A stretch of 25,724 nucleotides of DNA, from IMG/VR virus record IMGVR_UViG_2778261058_000001, one strand, 5' to 3'. The translations under genes and the position numbers were made by a program. The first letter of the stretch is position 1. Each line of letters starts with the position of its first letter. This stretch comes from a virus. Taxonomy: Duplodnaviria; Heunggongvirae; Uroviricota; Caudoviricetes. This document shows, piece by piece, positions 2,889 to 22,456 of the stretch. The notes beneath the pieces are model-generated. The model ran no database searches and had not been told where the DNA came from. It saw nothing but the letters and a program-made list of their open reading frames with translations.

Positions 2889-3228
2889 GAGATACCGTAA
2901 AAGTCAGGGGTTCAAAAAAATCTTCGGTGTGGGCGCTAATCAGCAGGCGACCAGAAAGCGGGGTTTCTTCTGTCACACTGACCGTGCCGGGTGTGATGCG
3001 CTCATCATCTTCAATCAGCAGTGTCATCTGCATCATGATGTCGGCACGAAGCGTCGGGCTTTTTTCAGCCAGCAGGCGCGTTGCCAGTCCGCTTTCAATG
3101 ATGGCGTGCTGGCAGTCCTGGGCAATACTTTCCCTGTTGTTGCATAACACCGGCTCACTGGCGCTGTTCAGCGTGAGATTGCGGCCGGTGATGAGCAAAT
3201 CAATGTAAAGCGGTTTATCAGTATGCAT
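2878..3228 (-). CDS. small baseplate protein in the gpW position (116 aa)
   Basis: Track ORF 2878..3366 trimmed to the ATG at 3228..3226, which overlaps the tape-measure stop (ATGCATACTGA, out of frame). Size and position match P2 gpW (115 aa), but I see no clear GP25/W motif, so the function is positional only. Confidence 0.4.
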   Translation of the reverse strand: MHTDKPLYIDLLITGRNLTLNSASEPVLCNNRESIAQDCQHAIIESGLATRLLAEKSPTLRADIMMQMTLLIEDDERITPGTVSVTEETPLSGRLLISAHTEDFFEPLTFTVSLDD

Positions 3229-5314
3229 GCAGCTCCATCCACTCGTTAAGACGGGCAGGGGATGGATCCTGCACATTGACGTTAACCACACGACGGGAGT
3301 TGTCGATGGTGGTTTGCTTTTCGCTGTTGTTCTGCATCTCTGCCGCAATGCCGCCCGGTCCCGCACTGATGGCTTTGCCGCCGGTTAATACGGAGCCTTC
3401 GCCACTTCCTGTGCTTTCTGATGTGCCGATGTTAACGCCGGGGATCATGTTGAGTTTGTCCACAATCCAGCCCCATGAATCACTGAAGGACTGTTTCACC
3501 AGTTCCCAGAGGTTGCTGAAAATATTCAGTATGCCGCCCGCGAGATCCTTCAGGGCATCCAGTGGTGAATGGGTGGAAAAATAGTTAACCAGTGCATTCC
3601 AGCCATCCCTGATTGCACTCCATGCATTGCCGAACCACGCCCCCATGCTGTTAATGATGCCGGCAACCCACTGAAATGCAGCGGTATCCATCAGTGCAGC
3701 TTTGATTTCATCCCAGCGGGTAATCAGGAAATAAATGCCCACACCCAGCGCAGCCAGTGCCAGGATGATTAATGTGATGGGGCTGAAAAGTAACTGTGTT
3801 GCAATTGCGGCTCCGCTGGTGACTGCGGAATAAATCCCCATGGCAACAGAAACGGCTGATAATGCTGCTGCCTGCAGGAGCATTCCGGCACGTTGTAGGC
3901 CCATCAATAGCAGTTGTGCTCTGGCGCGAATATTCATCACTCCCATGGCGATGTTTATTGCCAGATATATTGCTCTTACCATGCGGGCGGCAGCACAGAA
4001 CGCAAGCATAACCACTCTCATTGTGCGATACAGAAAAACGATTAATTTCAGTGGGGCGATGACGGCCATCCAGACCATGCGTAATCCCACCCAGATAAAT
4101 TTCGCAACCCCCATTACGACATTGACCGTTGCGCCAACCGCCGCAACACCAATAAGTGCCGCGCTTAATAAGCCGATTGCGCGAGTGATGTTTGGATACA
4201 GGCGTAACCAGGCAACAAAGGATTTACCGCCTTCGTTGCTTTTCTGGATAAACGGGTACAGAACAGGCAACAACTGCGTGCCAATTTCGATGCGAATGCC
4301 GTTAATAATTGCAGCGGCCTGTTCCCATGGATCAGCCATGGCCTGCGCCATTTCGACAGCCTTATCCATACCTTTGATATTGCCCAGCGTGGCGATATTC
4401 TTTTCAAGTCCGCCAATGTCCGCATTGAGTAATTTAATCATGGCCACAGCTTCATCGGAGCCAAAGGCGCTTTTCAGCAAATCGGAATCAGCCACTTTTG
4501 ACAGATCACCAAATTTACCCCTGATAAGTTTCATGATCTCGACAACACTTTTCATCGTGCCGTCTTTATTCACGAAATTAAGCCCCAGCTTTTTCTGGGC
4601 GCTGCCTACTGCGGCAAGAAATGCCTTGTACTTTGTCCCGGCCTCGCTGCCACTCATGGTGGCCTGCAGTTGTCCCAGCACGGCGAACTGTTCAGCCGCA
4701 TCAATACCGGCCGCTTTTGCACTGGCACCCAGCGTGGTGAACGCCGCTGACATGTTATCGCCGGTTGTTTTAAACATTTGCACGGCGGTGGCGGTTTGCC
4801 CGGCGACCTGCTCCACCCATTTGCTTTTTCCCATGGCATCAGCCTGGTCTTTAAAGATGCCGTACATGGTGCCCATGTAGGCGGTAATGGTCTGGCTGCT
4901 GGATTTGGTTGCTGCTGCCACCGTTGCTGATGCGGTGGTGAAGCGGGACAGCTCATCGTCAGTTAACCCGGCAATGGCTGACTGGATGTCGTAAGAAGCA
5001 CGCACAAAATCCTGCGCAGCCCCGCCGTATTCCATAGTGAAATCAACGGCGGCGCGGCTGAGTTTACGCAATCCGGACTCTGCGACGCCCAGTGATTTCA
5101 CCTCACCGAGCGCCCTGTCCATTTCAATGGCTGGCATCAATGCCCCCTGAATAGCTGCTCCCACTCCCCAGAGCGCAGCGCCTCCGGTAGCAATGTCCCG
5201 AAAGGCTCCCCGACTTGTTGCAGCAAATCCCTGAACCTGTCGCCCGGCTGCACGCAACGGCCTTGTCAGGCGGTCTGTCAGTTCAAGAAGTAATTCAAGG
5301 CGCTGTTGTGACAT
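3218..5314 (-). CDS. tail tape measure protein
   Basis: 698-aa ORF. Ala/Gly-rich helical N-terminal half, central hydrophobic membrane-like block (LLSAALIGVAAVGATVNVVMGVAKFIWVGLRMVWMAVIAPL...), Gly-rich C-terminus. Lies directly after the frameshifting chaperone, the canonical position. Confidence 0.85.
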   Translation of the reverse strand: MSQQRLELLLELTDRLTRPLRAAGRQVQGFAATSRGAFRDIATGGAALWGVGAAIQGALMPAIEMDRALGEVKSLGVAESGLRKLSRAAVDFTMEYGGAAQDFVRASYDIQSAIAGLTDDELSRFTTASATVAAATKSSSQTITAYMGTMYGIFKDQADAMGKSKWVEQVAGQTATAVQMFKTTGDNMSAAFTTLGASAKAAGIDAAEQFAVLGQLQATMSGSEAGTKYKAFLAAVGSAQKKLGLNFVNKDGTMKSVVEIMKLIRGKFGDLSKVADSDLLKSAFGSDEAVAMIKLLNADIGGLEKNIATLGNIKGMDKAVEMAQAMADPWEQAAAIINGIRIEIGTQLLPVLYPFIQKSNEGGKSFVAWLRLYPNITRAIGLLSAALIGVAAVGATVNVVMGVAKFIWVGLRMVWMAVIAPLKLIVFLYRTMRVVMLAFCAAARMVRAIYLAINIAMGVMNIRARAQLLLMGLQRAGMLLQAAALSAVSVAMGIYSAVTSGAAIATQLLFSPITLIILALAALGVGIYFLITRWDEIKAALMDTAAFQWVAGIINSMGAWFGNAWSAIRDGWNALVNYFSTHSPLDALKDLAGGILNIFSNLWELVKQSFSDSWGWIVDKLNMIPGVNIGTSESTGSGEGSVLTGGKAISAGPGGIAAEMQNNSEKQTTIDNSRRVVNVNVQDPSPARLNEWMELHAY

Positions 5315-5316
5315 TA

Positions 5317-5510
5317 CGATCCCTTAAAAGCACGGATAATGCCGTTATTGACGGCGATGCCCATATTTTCCCAGTAGTGGTTATCCAGCCAGACGGCGGC
5401 AGCCAGTGACTGCGGCGAGTCATCCTCGCCGGGCAGCCAGTGGCGGCGCAGGATCAGCATCCGGGTAAGGTCATTGCGATCAATGGCCCCCAGATGGCTT
5501 TTTATTTTTT
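5317..5510 (-). CDS. -1 frameshift extension of the tail chaperone (E'-like / GT-like long form)
   Basis: After a -1 slip on A_AAA_AAA (minus-strand 5510..5504) the frame reads IKSHLGAIDRNDLTRMLILRRHWLPGEDDSPQSLAAAVWLDNHYWENMGIAVNNGIIRAFKGS (64 codons, no stop). It ends at TAA 5316..5314, sharing one base with the tape-measure ATG (TAATG). Translated by hand. Confidence 0.65.
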
Positions 5511-5795
5511 TACGGTGATTTCCACTTCCGGCACAAACTCGTTATTCACGGCTGTTGCCAGGCTGGCCGGCATTCCTGGTTTTTCCAGCAACTGGTTCAG
5601 CAGATCGCGGTGCTCTTTAATCACGATGCGGCGCAGGTAGTTTTTCAGCGGCGCGATTTTGTTATCCGGCATGAAGTCGTTCTGCAGATCGTTGTAGGCT
5701 TTAACGGTCGGGATAAACGTCAGTTCATGCTCGCCGACCTGCAAAGTGATGGTGTTCTCTGCGGTAGTCTGGGTGTTTTTATCGTTCATCATCAT
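5502..5795 (-). CDS. tail assembly chaperone, short form (E/G-like)
   Basis: 97-aa acidic ORF starting ATGATGATG with an AAAAGGAA ribosome-binding site, located between the tube gene and the tape measure gene. Ends GTA AAA AAA TAA on a slippery A-run. Confidence 0.7.
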   Translation of the reverse strand: MMMNDKNTQTTAENTITLQVGEHELTFIPTVKAYNDLQNDFMPDNKIAPLKNYLRRIVIKEHRDLLNQLLEKPGMPASLATAVNNEFVPEVEITVKK

Positions 5796-5820
5796 TTCCT
5801 TTTAAAGTCAAGAATAAGAG

Positions 5821-5853
5821 GGCTTAATAAGCCTGCAGGAAGGCTTATTAAGC
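5821..5853 (-). terminator. hairpin with U-rich tail between peptidase gene and chaperone gene
   Basis: 12-bp inverted repeat GGCTTAATAAGC / GCTTATTAAGCC with an 8-nt loop; on the minus-strand RNA it is followed by UCUUAUUCUUGACUUU and then the chaperone ribosome-binding site. Confidence 0.5.
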
Positions 5854-5859
5854 GTAAAA

Positions 5860-6201
5860 TCAGCGCACGCCGTCGTGCTCAAGGCTGAAATGATTGCCAT
5901 CCGGGCGGTTTTTAAAACGACCGCCCCATGCGCCACCAAGGGATTCCCAGTACTCGCCCAGCTCGCGGTAGGCCTCTGTGCGGGTCTGATATTCACCGTT
6001 AATAAACAGGTTAAAATCCACGGCCAGCCGCTGACAGTGCAGGCTGTTGGCAATGCCTGATCCCTTTTGTGCGTTGAGTTTTGCCTGTTCTGGCGTGCGG
6101 TACGCTTCACCGAACGTCAGGCCATAACCGCGCTGATGGGCAAACTGGATGAGTTTTCCGATCATGACGGTAAATTGTTGTTGCTTATCGGAGAGTTTCA
6201 T
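5860..6201 (-). CDS. M15-family zinc peptidase, probable endolysin
   Basis: 113-aa ORF with strong ribosome-binding site AAGGAGCAAAAATG. Motifs SLHCQRLAVDFNL and DGNHFSLEH fit the His/Asp/His zinc-binding pattern of small M15 peptidases; no signal peptide. Confidence 0.7.
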   Translation of the reverse strand: MKLSDKQQQFTVMIGKLIQFAHQRGYGLTFGEAYRTPEQAKLNAQKGSGIANSLHCQRLAVDFNLFINGEYQTRTEAYRELGEYWESLGGAWGGRFKNRPDGNHFSLEHDGVR

Positions 6202-6310: not shown

Positions 6311-6607
6311 TTACTCCTCTTTGTTCTCTTTCTCGCCCAGCTTCCGGCGCATATGACGCAGGAAGATTTCAACAATCTGGTAACCGGCAACGCCCATTGC
6401 GGTGCCTGCGCCGGCAATGGCCAGTGGGTCAAGGTTCGGGTAGCGAACCAGCAGGGCAGCGGCAGAAACACCCAGCGCGCTCCCCAGCAGGGTTCGGCCC
6501 ACAAACAACCGCAACGTAATCGGCTCTGCGCCAGCCAGCACCCGACTTGCGGCAGCGATTCCGCCCAGAATGCCCAGAGTGATAATGGTGCGCTCATGCT
6601 CCTGCAT
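6311..6607 (-). CDS. holin-like small membrane protein
   Basis: 98 aa with three predicted hydrophobic helices (ITLGILGGIAAASRVLAGA; LRLFVGRTLLGSALGVSAAALLV; LAIAGAGTAMGVAGYQIVEIF) and a charged C-terminus RRKLGEKENKEE; sits just upstream of the peptidase gene. Confidence 0.5.
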   Translation of the reverse strand: MQEHERTIITLGILGGIAAASRVLAGAEPITLRLFVGRTLLGSALGVSAAALLVRYPNLDPLAIAGAGTAMGVAGYQIVEIFLRHMRRKLGEKENKEE

Positions 6608-6610
6608 GGT

Positions 6611-7066
6611 TCACCCCATCAGTCCGCGCACGTCGTTCTCTGAGAGAACGGGCACGCCGTTGATACGCACAAAGTCAGGGCTTGCCACCACGTACTTGAT
6701 TTTGTGCGTGGTCAGATCTGCGCTCTCGGTGTCAATGCTTAACAGGCCGGAAAGCATCAGCTCACAACCGAAGGCTTCAACGCGGATTTCTTCGCTTCCC
6801 GTATTGGCGTAAAACACAAAATCCATTGGCGGCAGATCGCGCCACGATCCCGCCTGAGCAGCCACTTCCCCGAGCTGGTTAAAGCTGCGGGTACTCATTT
6901 CGATTTCACCTTCGGCACTGACAGGGCCGCGCAGTTTGCCGTCAGGGATGCCACGGGTTTTGGCAACGGCGCTTTCATCGCTGATGTCCAGTGAGATGCT
7001 TTTCACATGGATATCCGTTCCACCGATAAAGGTGTCAAACGCCATGCCGTTAATGCGGGTCGTCAT
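6611..7066 (-). CDS. tail tube protein
   Basis: 151-aa ORF directly after the sheath gene (ATGA overlap at 7063..7066); size and position are typical of contractile-tail tube proteins. Confidence 0.7.
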   Translation of the reverse strand: MTTRINGMAFDTFIGGTDIHVKSISLDISDESAVAKTRGIPDGKLRGPVSAEGEIEMSTRSFNQLGEVAAQAGSWRDLPPMDFVFYANTGSEEIRVEAFGCELMLSGLLSIDTESADLTTHKIKYVVASPDFVRINGVPVLSENDVRGLMG

Positions 7067-8211
7067 GCGTTTTCCTCCAGAGATTTATCCAGCTGAATGC
7101 CCACTTTGATGGTTTTAGGGCAGGCGTAAGGGCGGACGACAATGCTGATGCTGACCGTCTTTTCGTCCTGCCAGGTGATAACCACGTCGCCTTTCTGAGG
7201 CGATTTCACTTCGCCCGGAAACGTGATGCCGTTAATTTGCATGGATTTCGCCATGGCACGCAATGGGCGGGCAAACAGCGTTTCATGTGCGGCAATGCTG
7301 CCCGGCGTGCTGTTCAGTGAGCGATCGGCAATTTTGGGGATGGCCATCAGCCGCACGCGGCGCGCCACCTTATCAGCAATGCGGACATGCTCAATGACGT
7401 TGTAGTCCCCGCCTTCCACCTCAAGTGTTACACCGTCAGCCCAGTAAAGGCCGTCATAGTCGGCATACCACATGGGCACGCTGTAGCGGGCGGTTGCCAG
7501 TGCCTGCAGAGTGTCGAGATCAATTGCCTGCCCTGCGCTGTCTTTCGGGCGTTCCGTGGTCTTCAGTGCGGACAGCGCCCCGGTTGCCACACGTGCCGGA
7601 CTGTCAGCAATGGTGACGGCGCTGTTACACAGGCGACCGGCAAGAACGCCCGGTTCAAATCCAAAAATCTCCGGAACCAGCATGACCTGCGGGGCTGCAA
7701 TGCCTTTCTGTAGTTCGGTCAGTTTGGCAACGTATTCCGCCCAGGTTTTACTGTTGTCGTTGGCGGCGATGGTCAGGATGAACCAGATGCGGCGCTGATA
7801 TTTATTGATGATGGTCTGACGTAACGCCTGTATGGCGTTGATGTCATCCTTCGTGCTGACCGGCTCGGTGATCACCACGCCTTCAACTGAAACAGTTTCC
7901 TGAGCCGCCAGTATGGCGTTCTGCCATACCTGGCAGGCTGGCGTTGCTTCTTTGCCTTTGCCGGCTTCCGGCAGAACGGCAACATAGAAAAAGGCATTCT
8001 GTCCGGCATTGGTCAGTGCAGACTGAAGGAAGTTCTTCAGCGGGCTGGCGTTCTTTCCCAGTAGCTCATCCAGATCGCTGTTGGCATTAACCGGCAGAAC
8101 CTCACCTTTGTTGTTTTGTGCATTGCCCACAAACAGCAGCGTATTTTCCACGCCGTCCGGCGAGCTACTGAACGTGTTGTACTGTTCAATTGTGACAGAT
8201 GGCCAGGTCAT
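7063..8211 (-). CDS. tail sheath protein
   Basis: Track ORF 7063..8343 trimmed to the ATG at 8211..8209 (MTWPSVTIEQ...), which has a GGAGA ribosome-binding site and avoids overlap with the upstream gene. About 382 aa, directly upstream of the tube gene. Confidence 0.75.
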   Translation of the reverse strand: MTWPSVTIEQYNTFSSSPDGVENTLLFVGNAQNNKGEVLPVNANSDLDELLGKNASPLKNFLQSALTNAGQNAFFYVAVLPEAGKGKEATPACQVWQNAILAAQETVSVEGVVITEPVSTKDDINAIQALRQTIINKYQRRIWFILTIAANDNSKTWAEYVAKLTELQKGIAAPQVMLVPEIFGFEPGVLAGRLCNSAVTIADSPARVATGALSALKTTERPKDSAGQAIDLDTLQALATARYSVPMWYADYDGLYWADGVTLEVEGGDYNVIEHVRIADKVARRVRLMAIPKIADRSLNSTPGSIAAHETLFARPLRAMAKSMQINGITFPGEVKSPQKGDVVITWQDEKTVSISIVVRPYACPKTIKVGIQLDKSLEENA

Positions 8212-8230
8212 AATTTGTCTCCTGATTTTG

Positions 8231-8944
8231 TTATCTCGTGCCGCCGTAATGCAGGCTGCGCAGCTGCGCTTCCAGAATGCGGGCAAATTCAGCGTTACTG
8301 GCTCCCAGAAATGCGCGGGAGGGAATTTTGATTTCCCATACACGTTTTTTCTGCTCGCCTTTCAGAATGCTGATCACCAGCCCGGCCTGCGCCATACTCA
8401 TGTTTTCCATAATCCATTTCAGGGAAGGTTTTCTGTATCCCCTGCGTCCGGTTTTTTTGCTGGCCGCGCCGACGGGGGCGCGAAAGCCCAGAGAAAGAAG
8501 GCGTTCTGCCTGCCGTCGTGTGGCGGGACGGGTGCGCATGGCTTCGCTGTCCCGGCGTTTTGTGGCGCGGCCTTTGATGGTTGCGCCGTGCTGTTGCACC
8601 CACGCAACTGCCCCACCATGAGAGCCGGTGTTGTAATCCCCTTTTTTGAAGAAAAGGCGGACACTTTTCCCGCTGCCGTCAACCCTGATGGCCAGCAGTT
8701 TCGGCAGTCCCAGCAGCATTTTGTTTTTATACCTGCCGCTGGCTTTATCCGGTCTTTTTCGTGGTGCCCAGGCTGCCCCCTCCGGTGTTCGCTGTGCTTT
8801 CACATTGCGTCGTGCAGCCGGTATCAGGCCGTATTTCGCAATGCGAACCAACAGCTTTCTGGCCTTTGCCGGCGGAAGTTCTGCCTCTCTGATGGCGCGA
8901 CGAACCTGCCGGAGTTGTGACTCGTTAATCACGGGGCGCGTCAT
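8231..8944 (-). CDS. virion morphogenesis / tail completion protein, P2 gpS-like
   Basis: 237-aa basic protein between the R-like gene and the sheath gene; resembles the phage virion morphogenesis family by eye; ATGA overlap with the upstream gene at 8941..8944. Confidence 0.6.
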   Translation of the reverse strand: MTRPVINESQLRQVRRAIREAELPPAKARKLLVRIAKYGLIPAARRNVKAQRTPEGAAWAPRKRPDKASGRYKNKMLLGLPKLLAIRVDGSGKSVRLFFKKGDYNTGSHGGAVAWVQQHGATIKGRATKRRDSEAMRTRPATRRQAERLLSLGFRAPVGAASKKTGRRGYRKPSLKWIMENMSMAQAGLVISILKGEQKKRVWEIKIPSRAFLGASNAEFARILEAQLRSLHYGGTR

Positions 8945-16001: not shown

Positions 16002-16245
16002 TGTTTTTTTTTGGGGGGTAAGGTAGCGCCAACCTCTCAGTTGGCGTGGTTGGAGTCCCAGTCTAACGACGAAGTGACCAACTAGGCGGTATCAACTTTT
16101 TTTTTGGGAGCCGCCTCTGAATCCCCAAAATATTCAATACAGTCTGCAAGTGAAAAGTAACGTTTAATGAACTTAAATTCAACGATAACCGTATTTGCGA
16201 TATGGGTTCACCTTGACTACAGCGACTGACGCGCTTCGCTTGTCC

Positions 16246-22130: not shown

Positions 22131-22349
22131 CGTGTATAGTAAGTTTTGAAAACTCACCATCCAGAGGTGGAAAACTCGGGGTGGTGAGACGTACAGGGTT
22201 TCCACAACCGGCTATACACGAACCCGGCCCGACCGAAGTCGGCCCCATACGCCCCACCATAATTCTGACGCGAAAAAGACGTGGCGATACGGTACGCACA
22301 AAAAAACCGCTGGCGCGGTTGTGCGCGTGTATAGTCAGCGGGGTGGAAA
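22131..22349. promoter_or_regulatory. array of three bipartite repeat elements (CGTGTATAG ... GTGGAAA), middle copy inverted
   Basis: E1: CGTGTATAG 22131-22139 with GTGGAAA 22167-22173. E2 (inverted): TTTCCAC 22199-22205 with CTATACACG 22212-22220. E3: CGTGTATAG 22326-22334 with GTGGAAA 22343-22349. E1 overlaps the 5' leader and ribosome-binding site of the first early gene. Confidence 0.55.
22296..22320 (-). terminator. rho-independent terminator, minus strand
   Basis: Minus-strand RNA reads AACCGC-GCCA-GCGGUU followed by UUUUUUUGUG (plus strand 22296-22320: ACAAAAAAACCGCTGGCGCGGTT). Short GC-rich 6-bp stem with a 7-U tract. Confidence 0.5.
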
Positions 22350-22456
22350 TCCCGGCACCCGTTTTATGAGGTGCAGCGGAAATGTAACCTGACTGATTGC
22401 GGCATGGCAAGCGGTTTTTTTGTGAGAACGGCATACTAAAAAATCCTGATGCTGCT

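Follow-up and report, generated by a model that had tools for sequence, protein, structure and literature searches.

Nearly all long-tailed phages make a frameshift-extended form of their tail assembly chaperone. In the IMG/VR virus record IMGVR_UViG_2778261058_000001 (Caudoviricetes), a stretch of 25,724 nucleotides (nt) analysed here in full and referred to as the window, a small chaperone open reading frame (ORF) on the minus strand is followed by an apparently non-coding gap of 187 nt (5501..5315) before the tail tape-measure ORF begins. The question which this locus raises is whether the gap encodes an extension of the chaperone, reached by a -1 slip on the A_AAA_AAA heptamer at the end of the chaperone ORF, as had been proposed from inspection of the DNA letters without database searches (hereafter the sequence-only reading), and, if so, by which mechanism the slip is made. 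The comparative analysis described below favours the view that the locus is a tail-assembly-chaperone recoding site that operates by ribosomal -1 frameshifting, and we put the probability of this at roughly 0.85. The elements of the locus are as follows.

5797..5801, minus strand: Shine-Dalgarno-like AAGGA of the chaperone gene, 7 nt 5' of the ATG at 5789, the third ATG being the best fit (read from the sequence)
5502..5795, minus strand: 0-frame tail assembly chaperone ORF, at most 97 amino acids (aa; MMMNDKNT...PEVEITVKK*), probably 95 aa from the third ATG (5789), with the 3' end GTA AAA AAA TAA
5505..5511, minus strand: slippery heptamer A_AAA_AAA, in the 0-frame phase (X_XXY_YYZ)
5502..5504, minus strand: 0-frame stop TAA, abutting the heptamer, a candidate 'shifty stop' stimulator
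5456..5499, minus strand: predicted stem-loop, a candidate 3' stimulator, beginning 5 nt after the heptamer (minimum free energy of the 92-nt stretch -34.1 kcal/mol, z -2.67)
5314..5505, minus strand: -1-frame extension, 63 codons (IKSHLG...AFKGS) plus TAA at 5316..5314
5458..5460, minus strand: internal ATG, start of a 48-aa 'DUF6890 family protein' in the annotation of the Prokaryotic Genome Annotation Pipeline (PGAP), rejected as a real start since no Shine-Dalgarno sequence lies upstream and the Met is not conserved
5320..5451, minus strand: part of the extension matching DUF6890, fusion residues 116-159 (Pfam PF21830, E 1.8e-22, full model length; phrog_7050, E 1e-28)
5320..5325, minus strand: tape-measure Shine-Dalgarno sequence AAGGGA, 5 nt 5' of the ATG at 5314, within the final extension codons (F-K-G-S; read from the sequence)
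3218..5314, minus strand: tail tape-measure gene, 698 aa (PF10145, E 7.5e-29; phrog_28, E 9e-92)

The chaperone ORF described in the sequence-only reading, 97 aa long and ending GTA AAA AAA TAA, is indeed present on the minus strand, 97 aa being the maximal ORF. This length is an upper limit because three ATGs stand in tandem at the start (5795, 5792 and 5789), and a 95-aa call by PGAP, under the name 'putative phage tail assembly chaperone', agrees with the third of them. Residues 16-97 match Pfam PF10963 (Phage_TAC_10) over the full model (1-82) with an E value of 6e-26 and 90.9 bits against a gathering cut-off of 25.7, the corresponding PHROG match being phrog_1214. Translation of the -1 frame from A5505 yields IKSHLGAIDRNDLTRMLILRRHWLPGEDDSPQSLAAAVWLDNHYWENMGIAVNNGIIRAFKGS followed by TAA at 5316..5314, giving a conceptual fusion product of 158-160 aa, and the two frames overlap over 40 nt. 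The open -1 frame had been described as one of 64 codons; the stop-free frame exists, but this count includes the stop codon, and the sense codons number 63. By our own rough estimate, a stop-free stretch of 64 codons has a probability of 0.05 of arising by chance. The extension accounts for the gap, whose length of 187 nt had been stated correctly, as had the sharing of one base, A5314, between the extension TAA and the tape-measure ATG (5314..5312; TAATG). With an AAGGGA of its own placed 5 nt ahead of the ATG, the tape-measure gene can be initiated independently of frameshifting. The conserved C-terminal 'AFKG' of the extension may in part reflect a constraint on the nucleotides rather than on the protein, because this AAGGGA is coded in the same codons.

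The conceptual fusion was compared by tblastn with 50,697 phage records, of which 76 matched; in 64 of these 76 the two halves were recovered as two pieces in different frames, and the two-piece records include HP1, HP2, K139, Kappa, phiO18P, ESSI-2, F108 and phi3. Comparison of 19 annotated phage loci and 24 IMG/VR loci gave 22 non-redundant representatives from 10 host genera, which together with the tblastn table are the basis of the family survey. In all 22 representatives the extension lies in the -1 frame relative to the chaperone, and an in-phase A_AAA_AAN is found within the frame overlap, as A_AAA_AAA (A7) in 11, A_AAA_AAC (A6C) in nine and A_AAA_AAG (A6G) in two. In Yersinia 324, ev239, ev015 and one IMG/VR relative the two frames share no more than 13 nt, and the shift is therefore pinned to the heptamer. 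The -1 frame had been described as ending exactly on the tape-measure start, which is true of the window and a few relatives but is not a rule of the family, since the end of the -1 ORF varies in other relatives, lying anywhere between 4 nt inside the start codon of the tape-measure gene and about 30 nt upstream of that codon.

The -1 frame reads as coding both in its freedom from stops and in its pattern of substitution. Over 22 x 60 codons it contains no stop, while the other frames contain 66 and 74, and among close relatives the ratio of nonsynonymous to synonymous polymorphism (pN/pS) is 0.24 in the -1 frame as compared with 2.1 and 3.1 in the other two. On these comparisons, it is only in the -1 frame that the protein is under purifying selection. 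The alignment of the extension is free of gaps from the first post-slip codon onwards. In most lineages F, A, Y, L or V stands in place of Met16 of the window extension, and in Yersinia 324, Aeromonas P05B, ev015 and SMHB1 there is no ATG, GTG or TTG before codon 38-52; independent initiation therefore cannot explain the conserved N-terminal third. The sequence-only reading had made its case depend on the downstream frame being conserved as coding in related phages, and this is what was found, in the -1 frame only and next to an invariant heptamer. Comparison thus supports the proposed -1 slip and the G/GT-type arrangement through that heptamer and an extension without a conserved start codon.

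Searching a protein database for the fused sequence brought up no full-length fusion annotated as such, but only 0-frame chaperones and one 96-aa Salmonella protein in which both domains are present. This protein, from Salmonella Montevideo, was ruled out as a slippage product, as it results from the loss of 185 nt between two copies of CTGCGCCGC, a 9-base-pair (bp) direct repeat which in the window occupies 5628-5636 and 5443-5451 (minus strand), 185 nt apart, and encodes L-R-R in the chaperone and extension frames respectively. The deletion product joins ...NYLRR to HWLPG..., with the chaperone and the DUF6890 domain in one frame. It was the sole single-chain form encountered, and no in-frame, 'ancestral' version of chaperone and extension was found among the relatives.

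A run of seven As is by itself unremarkable in the window, in which 15 A7 matches, at about 10 distinct sites, occur over 25.7 kb where 8.2 would be expected, and the case for the heptamer therefore rests on its context and on comparison. In 22 of 22 representatives the A-run is preceded by GTA or CTA, both rare codons, and AAA serves as the first Lys codon; this includes the GC-rich Pseudomonas phages, in which AAA makes up 17-25% of Lys codons. The joint codon-usage probability of GTA/CTA plus AAA, with local usage over nine clades, is about 9e-10, a value that is somewhat overstated because the clades were treated as independent. The 0-frame stop abuts the heptamer in 20 of the 22, the exceptions being two Pseudomonas phages in which A_AAA_AAG lies 21 nt before the stop. 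A stop in this position fits a 'shifty stop' stimulator, a classical idea that is said to go back to Weiss et al. in 1987.

Excess RNA structure is found directly downstream. The 60 nt after the window heptamer have a folding energy of -19.5, whereas synonymous recodings reach only -10.9 (z -3.0, p 0.003), and across the representatives the same 60 nt gave a mean z of -2.2 against dinucleotide shuffles (below -1.5 in 16 of 22) and of -2.16 against protein-preserving synonymous recodings (p <= 0.05 in 16 of 22). When the locus was scanned by position with the synonymous-recoding null, the post-heptamer position alone stood out (mean z -1.96), the 14 others ranging from +0.3 to -1.0. Hairpins comparable to that of the window are present in 16 of the 22; they start 2-8 nt downstream of the heptamer in most lineages and vary in sequence and register between them. 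The 5-nt spacer of the window hairpin lies within the dnaX-type range of about 5-9 nt, which is consistent with a role for the hairpin as a 3' stimulator. No known Rfam family was matched at the slip site.

Taken together, these features suggest the following mechanism. Most ribosomes would terminate at the UAA (5504..5502) to give the 95-97-aa Phage_TAC_10 protein, while a minority would slip back by 1 nt on A_AAA_AAA (5511..5505), where tRNA-Lys could re-pair perfectly in the -1 frame. Slipped ribosomes would then read AUA AAA AGC... and 63 further codons to produce the 158-160-aa fusion (...ITVKK-IKSHLG...AFKGS), the C-terminal part of which would be the 'DUF6890' domain. The stop directly 3' of the heptamer probably raises the rate of slipping, because slow termination would leave the P-site tRNA time to slip, and the stable stem-loop 5 nt downstream (5499..5456) probably raises it as well. 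By analogy with gpG/gpGT of lambda and gpE/gpE+E' of P2, both products would coat the tape-measure protein via their shared N-domain, and the rarer extension would recruit the tail-tube protein, with neither product being retained in the virion.

Several observations weigh against this mechanism. Experimental evidence for the fusion protein was found neither for the window phage nor for any relative, and none of the inspected records of the HP1, HP2, K139, Kappa, ESSI-2, phiO18P, F108 and phi3 branch carries a joined or slippage coding sequence (CDS). In E. coli, A_AAA_AAA shifts comparatively weakly, and both it and A_AAA_AAC are far less prone to shifting than A_AAA_AAG (PMC5009743). A weak site fits a chaperone that is required chiefly in its short form, and A_AAA_AAC serves g-t frameshifting in the archaeal virus HCTV-2. 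RNAalifold, run on the 22 ungapped sequences in search of a common-register structure or covariation, gave no pairs, and 17% of the other 60-nt windows in the locus fold equally well by absolute energy. A conserved upstream Shine-Dalgarno-like stimulator was not evident in the alignment of representatives, there being a weak GGAA 9 nt 5' of the heptamer in the window, GGAG in two close relatives and nothing comparable in the Vibrio/HP1 lineages. Lastly, an AlphaFold2 model of the chaperone alone was too poor for a fold search to confirm the chaperone fold (predicted local distance difference test score 54.6), and only one solved chain, 3fgx, was matched by sequence, weakly (E 0.0066).

The same fusion could also arise before translation, if RNA polymerase stuttered on the A7/T7 run and added one A to some mRNAs. 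The slip site is a homopolymer run, as such transcriptional slippage would demand, and the phenomenon has been described for other genes (PMC5009743). The protein made would be identical, and comparative data and mass spectrometry therefore cannot separate polymerase from ribosomal slippage. However, efficient slippage by bacterial RNA polymerase generally requires runs of about 9 or more, and those observed fall below this length, being A7 in the window and only A6 in 11 of the 22 relatives (nine A_AAA_AAC and two A_AAA_AAG). Moreover, the conserved abutting stop and the localized hairpin suit slippage by the ribosome, whereas a stuttering polymerase would have no use for them. We thus consider slippage by the polymerase unlikely and infer that the slip is made by the ribosome.

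A different possibility is that DUF6890 is a separate small gene of 48 aa beginning at the ATG at 5460, the 41 nt after the chaperone stop being non-coding. It is annotated in this way by PGAP in 42 E. coli genomes, and likewise in several phage records, and it has a family of its own in both Pfam and PHROGs; yet the ATG at 5460 is without a Shine-Dalgarno sequence, its Met is not conserved and the annotated starts vary between records. In the four phages named above the first available start lies inside or past the conserved core, while conservation and stop-freeness reach up to the heptamer in 22 of 22, and we regard a stand-alone gene as very improbable. That no recoding takes place at all seems to us scarcely credible. 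The -1 frame would then be either a decaying remnant, left by an old frameshift mutation or a sequencing error, or a sequence kept for its function as nucleic acid; homopolymers are hot spots of insertions, deletions and sequencing errors, and the region also holds the RNA hairpin and the tape-measure Shine-Dalgarno sequence. Against this, independently sequenced, viable phages of 10 host genera share the two-frame layout, as do the 42 E. coli genomes, purifying selection on the protein is confined to the -1 frame, and no relative was found to encode the two parts in one ancestral frame. Ribosomal frameshifting is thus the explanation that we retain.

Within this explanation, a more specific suggestion is that the weak A_AAA_AAA or A_AAA_AAC is made productive mainly by the abutting stop and a lineage-specific hairpin, as a distinct -1 recoding flavour of HP1-type chaperones. 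We offer this tentatively and would not be surprised to see it fail. The two lineages with the strong A_AAA_AAG are exactly the two without an adjacent stop, a pairing that hints at compensation between the strength of the site and the stop. If recoding were driven by the stop in this way, release-factor kinetics, and hence host physiology, would set the ratio of chaperone to fusion, and the whole Pfam family DUF6890 would have to be reassigned as a 'T-like' domain, made by frameshifting, that recruits the tube.

The neighbouring tail and lysis genes were identified through PF10772, PF10758 and PF13539, PHROG 1182 and 907, and the genes that PGAP annotates at an E. coli locus of 99% identity, and are as follows.

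7063-8343, minus strand: tail sheath, HP1-type (DUF2586), by Pfam, PHROG and PGAP
6611-7066, minus strand: tail tube, HP1-type (PF10772, Phage_HP1_Orf24), by Pfam, PHROG and PGAP
6311-6607, minus strand: holin, between the tube and chaperone genes
5860-6201, minus strand: M15 endolysin, between the tube and chaperone genes

On the minus strand the order is thus sheath, tube, holin, M15 endolysin, chaperone and tape measure, with DUF2590 and baseplate J genes 3' of the tape-measure gene, and lysis genes also lie between tube and chaperone in HP1, K139 and ESSI-2. The remaining genes of the window are P2-like head, packaging and replication genes, and the source element is a P2-like (Peduoviridae) prophage with an HP1-type tail module. 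Of 5426 complete E. coli genomes, 42 carry the locus at 99% identity.

In the window, endolysin and chaperone are too close together for spanin genes to fit between them, unlike in the Yersinia, ESSI-2-like, HP1 and Aeromonas relatives. The 65-nt gap from the endolysin stop to the chaperone start contains, at 5822-5853 (minus strand), a hairpin with a 13-bp stem (GCTTAATAAGCC-TTCCTG-CAGGCTTATTAAGC) followed by CCTCTTATTC, which looks like a candidate intrinsic terminator or attenuator separating the lysis genes from the chaperone and tape-measure genes. Elsewhere in the window, two adjoining Rfam matches above the gathering score, a C4 antisense RNA (77 bits; 22177-22264, minus strand) and an isrK Hfq-binding RNA (63.5 bits; 22300-22374, minus strand), probably mark a prophage immunity or anti-repressor control region. 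Two A9 runs about 90 nt apart (16004-16012 and 16097-16105, minus strand) lie in a region poor in long ORFs and have a length at which polymerase slippage or phase variation could occur.

The inspected records show at the extension either a gap of about 190 nt or a small hypothetical or 'DUF6890 family' ORF with arbitrary, varying starts, and a 2024 paper on a member phage is likewise without a joined CDS. We found no literature connecting DUF6890, Phage_TAC_10 or HP1 orf26 with frameshifting, although HP1 or K139 may be listed in Xu et al. 2004 or Christie et al. 2002. The chaperone itself is not always recognised: the K139 homologue (NC_003313; L035, 416-994) is entered as orf30, of 192 aa, the N-terminal part of which overlaps orf29 over a long stretch, and the chaperone region of VPUSM 8 (NC_022747) is labelled 'Rz-like spanin', both of which look like mis-annotated chaperones. 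The evidence says that DUF6890 is the C-terminal domain of the frameshift product of the upstream Phage_TAC_10 gene. The biology is as would be expected of a long-tailed phage, and the value of the finding lies mainly in annotation and as a model case: its recognition gives DUF6890 and PHROG 7050 a function, calls for correction in at least 42 E. coli genomes and 76 phage records, and provides a natural series (A7, A6C and A6G; stop adjacent or not; varied hairpins) for the study of how weak sites are tuned.

Among known systems, the sequence-only reading had likened the locus to E/E' of P2-like phages, a likeness that holds as analogy and in gene order but not as membership of a sequence family. 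For P2, Christie et al. are reported to have demonstrated in 2002, by experiment, a -1 frameshift at T_TTT_TTG that yields gpE and gpE+E'; the P2 record carries annotations for E, for the joined E+E' and for the shift site, and we rebuilt E+E' from T_TTT_TTG. Both loci belong to contractile-tailed Peduoviridae, and both have a small ORF just 5' of the tape-measure gene with a -1 extension of about 55-63 codons ending at, or overlapping, the tape-measure start. When the products themselves were compared, no detectable similarity emerged between that of the window and P2 E+E' (BLASTP E 0.26; hhalign probability 0.2% with an 18-sequence family profile). P2 E+E' consists of Phage_TAC_7 (PF10109) and Phage_P2_GpE (PF06528), whereas the window product matches Phage_TAC_10 (PF10963) and DUF6890 (PF21830) only; T_TTT_TTG lies six codons before the stop in P2, whereas A_AAA_AAA abuts it in the window; and gene E directly follows FII, whereas in the window, as in HP1, a lysis cassette stands between tube and chaperone. 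The window locus lies outside the P2 E/E' sequence families and is of the HP1/K139/ESSI-2 type.

Lambda offers a parallel from which the working of the window locus may be pictured, as it too has a chaperone and a frameshift-extended chaperone encoded just 5' of the tape-measure gene. In lambda the G stop does not abut the shift site but follows it after several codons; lambda differs further in being a siphovirus, in its shift site G_GGA_AAG and in having no Pfam relationship to the window products. gpG and gpGT are made at a fixed low ratio, the N-domain binding the tape measure and the T domain the tube subunit, and neither is found in the virion (PMC5009743); the window products may work in the same way. 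In its A-rich Lys heptamer, single tRNA-Lys and stem-loop a few nt downstream, the slip site itself resembles those of E. coli dnaX (A_AAA_AAG) and IS1 (A_AAA_AAC). In contrast to the HP1-type family, which has an adjacent stop and no conserved upstream element, dnaX has a Shine-Dalgarno-like stimulator upstream and no such stop, and it is about 50% efficient, whereas a low rate would be expected of the window locus. Pfam DUF6890 and PHROG 7050 hold the same sequence as the extension, but as an independent protein of unknown function. The gene order, the -1 overlap, the in-phase heptamer and the conserved coding, which are the computationally testable hallmarks of the G/GT-type class, are all found at the window locus.

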